This document shows, in pieces, positions 37,831 to 40,238 of a DNA stretch of 64,000 nt. The position numbers and the translations under genes are program-made. The notes beneath the pieces are model-generated. The model worked only from the letters and a program-made list of their open reading frames with translations, ran no database searches and was not told the origin of the DNA. Within the stretch, counting starts at the first letter, position 1. Each line of letters begins with the position of its first letter. Origin of the DNA: Escherichia coli (lineage in GTDB: Bacteria > Pseudomonadota > Gammaproteobacteria > Enterobacterales > Enterobacteriaceae); NCBI RefSeq assembly GCF_003334335.1, contig NZ_QOWQ01000013.1. One strand, written 5' to 3'.

Positions 37831-38375
37831 CATGCCGGATACGGCCTACGGTTCGGCACAGACTTGTAGGCATGATAAGACGCGACAAGCGTCGCATCAG
37901 GCATTGTGCGCCAACTGCCGGATGCGGCGTGAACGCCTTATCCGGCCTACGGTTCGGCACAGACTTGTAGGCATGATAAGACGCGTCAAGCGTCGCATCA
38001 GGCATTGTGCGCCGACTGCCGGATGCGGCGTGAACGCCTTATCCGGCCTACGGTTCGGCACAGACTTGTAGGCATGATAAGACGCGACAAGCGTCGCATC
38101 AGGCATTGTGCGCCAACTGCCGGATGCGGCGTAAACGCCTTATCCGGCCTACGGTTCGGCACAGATTTGTAGGCATGATAAGACGCGTCAAGCGTCGCAT
38201 CAGGCATTGTGTGCCGACTGCCGGATGCGGCGCTGACGCGCCTTATCCGGCCTACGGTTCGGCACAGACCTCCAGGCATGATAAGACGCGTCAAGCGTCG
38301 CATCAGGCATTGTGCGCCAACTGCCGGATGCGGCGTAAACGCCTTATCCGGCCTACGGCACGTTAAACACCGCAT
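37831..38375. repeat. tandem BIME/REP array, about 5.5 copies of a ~101-bp unit
   Basis: unit gccggatgcggcgtgaacgccttatccggcctacggttcggcacagacttgtaggcatgataagacgcgNcaagcgtcgcatcaggcattgtgcgcc recurs at 37917, 38018, 38119, 38220, 38323. Confidence 0.85.
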
Positions 38376-39132
38376 ACGTGTTATTAAGCAACACTTCGGC
38401 AATCTCATCCGCGGGTTCCGGGCGCAACTCGCAAAGCACGTCAAACACCCGTGCAGCCTGTTCCGGGCGGTTAGGCTGCCCCTGAAAGCCGTTGAACGGC
38501 ATATCCGGCGCGTCGGTTTCCAGCAACAACGATGCCAGCGGTAATTTTGCGATGACATCGCGGGTTTTACTGGCGCGTGGATAGGTGATAGTACCGCCTA
38601 CGCCGATTTTGTAGCCCAGCTGTACAAACCGCTCGGCCTGTTGCAGGCTGCCGGAAAAACCGTGAACCACGCCAGTGCGCGATAAATCGTGGCGTTTAAG
38701 ATGCATCGCCAGTTTGTCGTGTGTGCGCCGTGAATGCAGGATCACCGGCAGATCGTAGCGTTTCGCCAGTTTCAGTTGTTCGTCAAGTAACCACTGCTGC
38801 CTCTCAAATTGCGGATCGTCGCCGAAGAGATCCAGACCGATCTCCCCCACCGCCACCACCTTCGCCGGACGCCTTTCCAGCGCCTGCTGTAGCTGATCAA
38901 GAGACACATCGCTATGTTTTTCCAACATACCAGGATGCAAGCCCAATGCGGCATACAGCGGTTGATATTTTTCCGCTAACGCCTGCACGCGGGCAAAATT
39001 TTCCGCCTCGGTTGCCGGAACAATGATCTTGCCTACGCCCGCTTGTGCCGCGCGTTGCAGGCTGGCCTCTTCATCGCCACTAAACGGCGGAAAATCAAAA
39101 TGGCAGTGGGTGTCGATAAAACGGCAAATCAA
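38353..39132 (-). CDS. yjjV: TatD-family metal-dependent hydrolase YjjV
   Basis: 259-aa ORF MICRFIDTHCHFDFPPF (TatD HxH motif). Confidence 0.9.
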   Translation of the reverse strand: MICRFIDTHCHFDFPPFSGDEEASLQRAAQAGVGKIIVPATEAENFARVQALAEKYQPLYAALGLHPGMLEKHSDVSLDQLQQALERRPAKVVAVGEIGLDLFGDDPQFERQQWLLDEQLKLAKRYDLPVILHSRRTHDKLAMHLKRHDLSRTGVVHGFSGSLQQAERFVQLGYKIGVGGTITYPRASKTRDVIAKLPLASLLLETDAPDMPFNGFQGQPNRPEQAARVFDVLCELRPEPADEIAEVLLNNTYAVFNVP

Positions 39133-40238
39133 GCCAGATCCTCATTGTTAAATGTCGGGTCGTTCGCCTGCGGAGCATCGCTCACTTCGGCAACCAGCGT
39201 ATCGTTGGCGACTGGCGCAGGCGGAATAACGATCGATTCCGGCGTCACCACTGGCACCAGATGGCGGGTAAGCGGCGCTTTTTCAGTTAATAGCTTGCCA
39301 ACCGTGGCGAGGAAATATCGCCCGCATAAACGCCCAAGTTTATAGTCTTCACGCAGCGCCGGAATCCGACTGCCAAGCGCGATACTATGTAATGGCTTCG
39401 GTGGATAAATTTCGAATATCCGCAGCTTGCCCGGTGGTTTCTCAATAAATTGCTGGATGTCACGATAGCTGGTTTCATGATGCTGCACCAGATTGACCAG
39501 CGGCTGCAGGCTACTGTCACCCAGCCAGCGTTCCATGCGTTTGAACCACTGCGGCGTGTAGTACATTTGTGACGGCACAGTGCGAATGACGACCAACGTT
39601 TTAGCGCCCTGCCTTGCCGCCTCTTTAACCGGAATCGCATCACTGATCCCGCCATCCAGGTAGTTAATGCCTTCCAGCGACACTCCGCTACGATAAAAGC
39701 CAGGTATCGCACTGGAGGCGCGAATCACATCCAGCCAGTTTTGTTTGGTTGGTAAAAAGTAATTCGGCGCATAGTCATCCTGACGACAGGCGCACATATA
39801 AAACGATTTGCCGCTGTCAAACAACCGCGCGGCGGTATCCATTTGCAACGGCATCTGACTTGCGGTGGCCTCCACCAGCCAGTCGAGATCGATAAGATTT
39901 CCTCCACGCACAAAGCGCAATGGATCGAAAAATTCGCGTTTTGTGGTATAGCGCATGATGACTTTGCGCGCGTAACCGGGCTGATTGCAGATATACGCCG
40001 AGAGGTTCTGCGCCCCGGCAGATGTGCCGAGATAAAGATCGAAAGGATTAAACTGCGCGCGCATAAACTCATCCAGCACGCCAGCCGTGAAAATTCCACG
40101 CTGTCCGCCGCCTTCGCACACCAGAGCTATTCGTCCAGGCTGGAACGGCCTTAGCGACAACGGCGCAATATTACCAAGCGTTACAGGTATTCGCTGCCCC
40201 ACCTCTGCCTTCCTGTTTTTGTTGTGAAAGAATGACAA
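39129..40238 (-). CDS. yjjU: patatin-like phospholipase family protein YjjU
   Basis: ORF with GGGQRG oxyanion motif and GTSAG lipase motif; true start may be a downstream GTG (K-12 product is about 357 aa). Confidence 0.85.
   Translation of the reverse strand: MSFFHNKNRKAEVGQRIPVTLGNIAPLSLRPFQPGRIALVCEGGGQRGIFTAGVLDEFMRAQFNPFDLYLGTSAGAQNLSAYICNQPGYARKVIMRYTTKREFFDPLRFVRGGNLIDLDWLVEATASQMPLQMDTAARLFDSGKSFYMCACRQDDYAPNYFLPTKQNWLDVIRASSAIPGFYRSGVSLEGINYLDGGISDAIPVKEAARQGAKTLVVIRTVPSQMYYTPQWFKRMERWLGDSSLQPLVNLVQHHETSYRDIQQFIEKPPGKLRIFEIYPPKPLHSIALGSRIPALREDYKLGRLCGRYFLATVGKLLTEKAPLTRHLVPVVTPESIVIPPAPVANDTLVAEVSDAPQANDPTFNNEDLA

Follow-up and report, generated by a model that had tools for sequence, protein, structure and literature searches.

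Why should a gene for a putative lipid-cleaving enzyme be chained to a gene for an enzyme that resembles a nuclease? The question is raised by a stretch of 64,000 nucleotides from Escherichia coli (contig NZ_QOWQ01000013.1 of assembly GCF_003334335.1; hereafter, the window), which belongs to the E. coli chromosome and carries on its reverse strand the pair yjjU-yjjV, coding for a patatin-like protein and a TatD-family hydrolase. A preliminary description of this DNA had called the pairing of a lipid esterase with a nuclease-like hydrolase unusual and uncharacterised. The pair is in fact the catalogued bicistronic operon yjjUV, which E. coli shares with other Enterobacterales, already known and no new system, and it forms part of a conserved block, prfC-osmY-ytjA-yjjU-yjjV. 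The pairing itself is real but ordinary, and the word 'uncharacterised' goes too far for a named operon that has been placed in the YdeO>GadE acid regulon and whose second product, YjjV, has a solved structure (1ZZM) and measured activities. The explanation of the pairing that we favour, and consider somewhat probable, is that the two genes constitute a stress-induced, translationally coupled bicistron of two independent cytoplasmic hydrolases, one acting on lipid and the other on nucleic acid.

A physical tie between the two genes lies at their junction. The list of open reading frames (ORFs) and the sequence place both in the same orientation on the minus strand, a point to be amended in the preliminary description, and the 4-bp overlap that the preliminary description had pointed out is annotated by RefSeq in a close strain and in K-12 too. 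Read on the minus strand, the junction runs ...AAT GAG GAT CTG GCT TGA TTT GCC..., with four bases (39129-39132) shared by the two genes. On the strand of the genes, a consensus scan showed neither a promoter-like nor a terminator-like site between yjjU and yjjV. Judging from this layout, ribosomes that end yjjU at its TGA would meet a GAGGA Shine-Dalgarno sequence, ideally spaced, and the overlapping TTG, and would thus produce YjjV by translational coupling (Table 1).

How widely this arrangement is retained was surveyed by one scan of species-representative genomes with an alignment of YjjU, which returned 80 loci. In all 65 enterobacterial loci, where YjjU identity is 53-98%, the next gene downstream is a co-oriented yjjV homologue (55-95% identity); these loci come from the Enterobacteriaceae, Erwiniaceae, Yersiniaceae, Hafniaceae, Morganellaceae and Budviciaceae. 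The junction was assignable in 64 of them and takes the form of the 4-bp NTGA overlap in 46, the others ranging from -14 to +29 bp. Since prfC, osmY and ytjA are also syntenic upstream in most enterobacterial loci, the adjacency of yjjU and yjjV alone carries limited information. Only one complete sampled locus shows the pair in a different neighbourhood, that of Budvicia aquatica (L057, 4001-5787), where yjjU-yjjV is intact with an 11-bp gap and prfC, osmY and ytjA do not occur within 4 kb.

Beyond the Enterobacterales, no TatD homologue was found in the other 15 loci of the scan (YjjU identity 37-53%), which belong to Plesiomonas, Zobellella, Laribacter, Shewanella, Photobacterium, Aliivibrio, Vibrio, Moritella and one gammaproteobacterial metagenome-assembled genome, and four of which have less than 2 kb of downstream sequence. 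Five further metagenomic or genomic YjjU homologues had no TatD neighbour either, and a sixth contig had too little context. Clustering of the ORFs from 17 loci and inspection of six contigs revealed no recurrent partner of the distant homologues, a LysR-type regulator being present in four loci. As surveyed from YjjU, the yjjU-yjjV pairing is confined to the Enterobacterales, to which the best hits listed for YjjV also belong; elsewhere, a YjjU-like gene occurs singly or as a fusion with a lysophospholipase. Such a limited distribution weakens the idea of a general partnership between a lipase and a nuclease. No paper on the pairing emerged from literature searches for DUF6363 or for patatin combined with TatD.

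The fused relatives are informative about the patatin side of the pair. In Vibrio and Aliivibrio, a protein of about 635 amino acids joins a YjjU-like module to a C-terminal PldB-like lysophospholipase L2 domain. Its N-terminal 300 residues are YjjU-like (37-39% identity) with the same Patatin and DUF6363 domains, and its C-terminal part matches NF008019 with 248 bits (E 9e-74) and Hydrolase_4 with 1e-45. The partner in these Vibrionaceae is a fused PldB-like alpha/beta hydrolase and not a separate TatD gene, and no TatD gene occurs within 4 kb. That the representative protein P0135 might be a fusion of patatin with TatD was considered and rejected, as BLASTP against YjjV found nothing and the C-terminal half is a PldB-like lysophospholipase. 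Indirectly, the fusion hints that this patatin subfamily acts on phospholipid acyl chains. Yet another arrangement is seen in two Photobacterium species (L074 3995-5962; L075 3959-6032), which carry, instead of the patatin-TatD pair, a tandem of two YjjU-like patatin genes separated by 10-70 bp.

The YjjU protein itself fits with such an activity. Pfam recognises a Patatin domain (1.6e-23, model positions 1-190 of 191) followed by DUF6363 (3.8e-22). Conservation was judged on 40 family members with identities down to 27%, drawn from an exhaustive representative search (930 proteins, E<=1e-10). Both motifs named in the preliminary description, GTSAG and GGGQRG, are present, as is a DGG that it does not name, and key residues of both as well as the aspartate of the catalytic dyad in DGG are invariant in this alignment (Table 1). 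An AlphaFold (AF2) model built on the 40-member alignment reaches a predicted local distance difference test score (pLDDT) of 88 and a predicted template modelling score (pTM) of 0.85; it is disordered beyond residue 306 or so, over roughly the last 50 residues. In a Foldseek search of the PDB, the top 23 matches of this model are patatin-fold lipases; the nearest solved folds are CapV and CapE, effectors of the cyclic-oligonucleotide-based antiphage signalling system (CBASS), Pseudomonas PlpD and potato patatin (E 5e-13 to 4e-9; query TM-score, TMq, about 0.5-0.56; 15-19% identity). YjjU is predicted from sequence to be a cytoplasmic patatin-fold acyl hydrolase. One group judged the functional and mutational predictions that it had made in silico for yjjU and rssA to be 'not conclusive' (PMC4666226).

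The start of yjjU needs a correction. The maximal ORF, 39129..40238, would encode 369 amino acids from a TTG, and the span of 38353-40238 given in the preliminary description had the end of yjjV right and adopted this distal start for yjjU. The start codon is most likely the GTG at 40202, which gives 357 amino acids: an AGGAAGG Shine-Dalgarno sequence lies 5 nt ahead of it, with nothing comparable ahead of TTG 40238, and the gene measures 1074 bp (357 amino acids) in RefSeq and K-12. Further, 3875 member sequences are represented by the 357-aa form and only 5 by the 369-aa form, and the aligned enterobacterial orthologues start at the equivalent MG(Q/Y/K)(R/H)IP. At the other end, the disordered C-terminal tail (residues ~306-357, window 39132-39285) is Pro/Ala-rich in enterobacteria and absent from distant homologues. 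Its length varies: it has about 50 residues in E. coli, whereas in Yersinia, Rahnella and Hafnia it exceeds 100 (loci L035-L046). The acidic tip of the tail may be conserved because its last codons (NEDLA, with GAG GAT) double as the Shine-Dalgarno sequence of yjjV.

YjjV matches Pfam TatD_DNase (7.9e-75) and scores 574.6 bits on its own NCBIfam equivalog, NF008522, whose curated cutoff is 481. It is essentially identical over residues 1-259 (5e-167) to the K-12 protein deposited as PDB 1ZZM, 'putative deoxyribonuclease YjjV', whose ligands include Zn2+ and a polyethylene glycol (PEG) molecule. Its N-terminal motif is HxH, which denotes class II, and not the (G/A)xN of class I in the published scheme (PMC10085689). 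The HxH signature reported from the sequence is thus confirmed, and residues H9, H11, E97, H133, H157, E205 and D207 are invariant in 66 orthologues. A lack of conservation on alignment had been proposed as grounds for abandoning the assignments; the catalytic residues of both proteins proved invariant.

Purified K-12 YjjV is reported to show weak activity both as a 3'-exonuclease on single-stranded DNA (ssDNA) and as an apurinic/apyrimidinic (AP) endonuclease on double-stranded DNA (dsDNA); YjjV, TatD and YcfH are dispensable for Tat export, and the triple tatD yjjV ycfH mutant is viable and sensitive to H2O2 (PMC10085689). YjjV has also been recovered as an RNA-binding protein (PMC11066096), and yjjV is cited as linked to bile tolerance of S. 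Typhi (PMC11213900).

The yjjUV operon is listed as a RegulonDB transcription unit, induction of YdeO raises yjjU and yjjV equally (log10 ratios 0.58-0.63), and the operon is placed in the YdeO>GadE cascade (PMC4222967); the listing and the equal induction support the co-transcription on which the preliminary description depended. A GadE peak from chromatin immunoprecipitation with exonuclease treatment (ChIP-exo) at 4610316-4610345 was assigned to yjjU as activating, and is listed with a 'distance to TSS' (transcription start site) of +186.5 (PMC4918353 supplement). In a gadE knockout, yjjU expression halves, from 65 to 33 fragments per kilobase per million (FPKM), and a yjjU knockout was reported to have lower general, not glutamate-dependent, acid resistance (PMC4918353).

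The published coordinates of the GadE peak appear to be in an older K-12 numbering. With an offset between the two K-12 genome versions that we take to be 1977 bp, the peak would fall upstream of yjjU in the window (Table 1), where positions 40293-40312 presumably hold a weak GAD-box match (12/20 to the consensus). From this mapping and the listed distance, the transcription start used there would lie just upstream of ytjA. A holoenzyme site for RpoD, found by systematic evolution of ligands by exponential enrichment (SELEX), lies in the ytjA-yjjU spacer (PMC3946193). Our consensus promoter scan showed no sigma-70-like site on the gene strand, even upstream of yjjU, so the position of the promoter is taken from the literature. 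The same spacer holds a strong terminator-like hairpin of 10 bp, GC-rich, with a predicted folding energy of -19.5 kcal/mol (z = -2.8), which a simple terminator scan did not list. The operon may be expressed in part by read-through from ytjA despite this hairpin.

Taken together, the observations suggest the following sequence of events. The transcript starts upstream of yjjU and, as others have shown, is raised by the YdeO>GadE acid-stress cascade, and YjjV would then be supplied through the coupled junction. YjjU would use its Ser61-Asp183 dyad and the GGG oxyanion loop to cut fatty acyl chains from glycerophospholipids or lysophospholipids. YjjV, a TIM-barrel metal-dependent enzyme of TatD class II, could act according to the activities reported by others as a weak 3'-5' exonuclease on ssDNA and an AP-endonuclease on dsDNA. 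The two enzymes would most likely act on different substrates, membrane lipid on the one hand and damaged nucleic acid on the other, and the tie between them would be that both are controlled in common during acid, bile or stationary-phase stress. It is established chemistry that DNA is depurinated more readily in acid, and membranes are damaged by acid as well as by bile. Co-induction by GadE would then make sense for a pair of enzymes that handles both kinds of damage. The two proteins probably form neither a complex nor a single pathway. Folded as one chain, a fused YjjU-YjjV model gives a pTM of 0.55, about the share of the larger domain, compared with 0.85 for YjjU alone; both domains fold and the linker has a pLDDT of about 30. 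The low pTM and the disordered linker lend no support to a fixed interface, which we regard as weak evidence from a model.

Several points weigh against this account and should be kept in view. The fused model is crude, as it comes from a shallow paired alignment of fairly similar sequences from 27 genomes and carries no predicted aligned error. The retention of a tight junction across the order would fit a stoichiometric or pathway link as well. The searchable literature reports no enzymatic assay of YjjU. YjjV showed 'very little' nuclease activity, which the authors of that work blame on poor solubility (PMC10085689), and DNA may, given so little activity, not be its true substrate. The GadE peak at yjjU is weak, with a signal-to-noise ratio of 1.09 (PMC4918353), and the phenotype of the yjjU knockout may be a polar effect on yjjV. 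Finally, the rationale of repairing acid and bile damage is one that we infer ourselves.

One of the other explanations would place both enzymes in a single pathway. YjjU would deacylate a phospholipid or an acylated phosphodiester, and YjjV would be the phosphodiesterase for the resulting glycerophosphodiester or a related small molecule, so that the operon would encode a two-step module of lipid turnover. We hold this to be unlikely, and still somewhat more doubtful is the specific claim within it that YjjV, rather than being primarily a DNase, takes the second step in a lipid or small-molecule pathway begun by YjjU, for instance by cleaving the glycerophosphodiester or other phosphodiester that deacylation leaves. 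Such a role would explain both the weak nuclease activity and the translational coupling throughout the order, and the notion gains from the Vibrionaceae, where the YjjU module is fused to what would be the next lipid-deacylation enzyme, as though the family recruited pathway partners, and from the PEG molecule among the 1ZZM ligands. It has to contend with some 20 loci of the YjjU family outside the Enterobacterales that have no TatD partner, with the cleavage of ssDNA and AP-DNA by YjjV and its capture as an RNA-binding protein, and with the fact that characterised TatD-family enzymes act on nucleic acids; nor does the fused model offer a confident interface, and adjacency says little in a block that is syntenic as a whole. 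Equally unlikely, in our estimate, is that the genes are accidental neighbours, adjacent in an enterobacterial ancestor and kept so by general synteny, with a common promoter and no common physiological purpose. The conserved flanking genes prfC, osmY and ytjA, the absence of the pairing outside the Enterobacterales and the missing complex signal in the fused model would all suit mere neighbours. It is hard to see, however, why most lineages would then have kept the start-stop overlap with a Shine-Dalgarno sequence inside the tail of yjjU, why the pair persists in Budvicia away from its usual flanking genes, and why both genes respond equally to YdeO.

Two further readings have far less to commend them. 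The resemblance of YjjU to the CBASS effectors CapV and CapE, its nearest solved folds, and matches to the phospholipase-effector models of PADLOC for YjjU and to the QatD model for YjjV, could suggest an anti-phage or abortive-infection module, in which the patatin would be a membrane-lysing effector as in CBASS CapV and the TatD-type enzyme a nuclease as in QatD. The PADLOC effector matches, though, span only residues 27-64 of YjjU, and the NCBIfam scores are well short of their cutoffs (CBASS_lipase, NF041079, 25 bits against 200; QatD, NF041926, 107 against 230). No cyclase, sensor or QatABC gene is adjacent, the neighbours being ytjA, osmY and yjjV; the pair is a core one at a fixed housekeeping locus in 5424/5426 E. 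coli genomes and across the Enterobacterales, and a published domain screen warns that homology of TatD to QatD yields false defence calls. Sub-threshold or partial matches, core-gene status and fixed synteny argue against this candidate, which we reject and regard as the least credible of all. The idea that YjjU is a regulator is also highly improbable. An adaptive-evolution study listed yjjU as a putative regulator and saw growth rates change by +23% and -23% on its knockout in two backgrounds (PMC3469383), but the label rested on annotation alone, the growth effects are small and possibly polar on yjjV, no DNA-binding domain was found in YjjU, and YjjU has the entire patatin fold, in which the catalytic dyad is invariant.

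Table 1. Positions of the features discussed, given in the window except for the Vibrionaceae fusions, which are given in their own loci.
Feature	Position	Strand	Description and evidence
yjjU coding sequence, 357 aa + stop	39129..40202	-	ORF; Pfam Patatin + DUF6363; RefSeq yjjU = 1074 bp; AF2 model; Foldseek
yjjV coding sequence, 259 aa + stop, TTG start	38353..39132	-	Class II (HxH) TatD-family TIM-barrel metal-dependent hydrolase
Coupling junction	39129..39143	-	Shine-Dalgarno GAGGA (39139-39143), 6-nt spacer, yjjV TTG (39130-39132) overlapping yjjU TGA (39129-39131)
GGGQRG codons, YjjU residues 31-36	40095..40112	-	Patatin oxyanion-hole loop; G31 and G32 invariant in 40 homologues
GTSAG codons, YjjU residues 59-63	40014..40028	-	GxSxG nucleophile elbow with Ser61; G59, S61 and G63 invariant in 40 homologues
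DGG codons (GAT GGC GGG), YjjU residues 183-185	39648..39656	-	Catalytic Asp183 of the Ser-Asp dyad; D183 and G184 invariant in 40 homologues
H9-C10-H11 codons (CAC TGC CAT) of YjjV	39100..39108	-	HxH metal-binding motif within DTHCHFD; H9 and H11 invariant in 66 orthologues
In-frame upstream extension of yjjU to TTG 40238	40203..40238	-	Probably untranslated leader with the yjjU Shine-Dalgarno AGGAAGG (40208-40214)
Terminator-like hairpin and U-rich tract	40260..40294	-	Stem-loop 40272-40294, U-rich to ~40260; just after ytjA, upstream of yjjU
GadE ChIP-exo peak, approximate	40291..40320	.	Mapped by inference from the K-12 layout; between ytjA stop and hairpin
Five tandem repetitive extragenic palindromic (REP) units, 101 bp each	37833..38358	-	Five direct repeats with a 101-bp period that take up the spacer between convergent yjjV and yjjW; 3' flank of yjjV
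Fusion loci (YjjU-like module + PldB-like domain)	L076 3998-5917; L078 3998-5917; L080 4001-5902		Protein P0135, 638 aa

The surroundings of the pair are those of the species. The gene layout in a close strain and in K-12 MG1655 is deoCAB, then yjjI-yjjW converging on yjjV-yjjU-ytjA-osmY-prfC, and the same neighbours are found here. Megablast against complete E. coli genomes matched 5424 of 5426 with at least 80% of the stretch covered, and their annotation describes yjjU as a patatin family protein and yjjV as a metal-dependent hydrolase. Identity over 38353-40238 is at least 99% in only 20 of the 5424 genomes and 95-99% in 5367; because so few are at least 99% identical, the window would come from a less-sampled E. 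coli lineage. Downstream, the last unit of the REP array adjoins the yjjV stop codon, and the copy number of the array differs among strains. Each of the five units matches Rfam naRNA4 (RF02564) at 64-79 bits, above the gathering score of 59.5, and four of them score best on the minus (yjjV) strand. The array would lie at the 3' end of a yjjUV transcript if it continued past yjjV. Converging on yjjV are yjjI, which codes for a glycyl-radical-enzyme-like protein of 516 aa, and yjjW, which codes for its 287-aa activase, at 35445-37830 of the window with a 29-bp overlap; they stand beside yjjUV only in a subset of the Enterobacteriaceae and in Edwardsiella.

The discovery value of the locus is small, since the operon is annotated, listed in RegulonDB and assigned to the GadE/YdeO acid regulon, and YjjV has both a structure and activities. 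YjjU, on the other hand, belongs to those core enzymes of E. coli to which no substrate has yet been assigned. What the present analysis adds are the taxonomic limits of the pairing together with a conserved coupling junction specific to the Enterobacterales, the lysophospholipase fusion of the Vibrionaceae, which points to phospholipid deacylation, and the caution that the phenotypes published for yjjU knockouts may reflect polarity on yjjV. Should both enzymes share a pathway after all, the known chemistry of the TatD family would widen, and through YjjV the family would gain its first substrate other than a nucleic acid.

Set beside known systems, the closest counterpart is the yjjU-yjjV operon of K-12 itself (b4377-b4378; RegulonDB unit yjjUV), which has the same genes in the same order, the same neighbours (osmY-ytjA upstream and yjjW convergent downstream) and the same 4-bp overlap. 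Differences are at the strain level only, most complete E. coli genomes being 95-99% identical here, and include the 3' spacer of yjjV, which measures 522 bp in the window, where it holds five 101-bp REP units; in K-12 it has 419 bp and in strain UTME-7 about 213 bp. With CapV, CapE and PlpD, YjjU shares the patatin alpha/beta fold, the Ser-Asp dyad and the Gly-rich oxyanion loop (Foldseek E 5e-13 to 1e-10, TMq about 0.55), and phmmer gives a weak PlpD match around both motifs. It is nevertheless just 15-19% identical to these proteins, its CBASS_lipase score is far under the cutoff, no cyclase lies nearby, and there is no sign of control by a nucleotide second messenger; in place of the secretion and beta-barrel domains of full-length PlpD, it has DUF6363 and a disordered acidic tail. 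YjjV has in common with E. coli YcfH, human TATDN3 and S. aureus SAV0491 the TIM-barrel TatD_DNase domain, the HxH motif and the E/H/H/D metal ligands, and 3'-exonuclease and AP-endonuclease activity is reported to be common to YjjV, YcfH and TatD (PMC10085689). It stands apart from other class II members of the TatD family in having its own equivalog, NF008522, while scoring under the TIGR00010 cutoff (189 against 206 bits), and its measured activity is far weaker than that of TatD or YcfH (PMC10085689). Among the three E. coli paralogues, YjjV is the only one that is coupled to a patatin gene.

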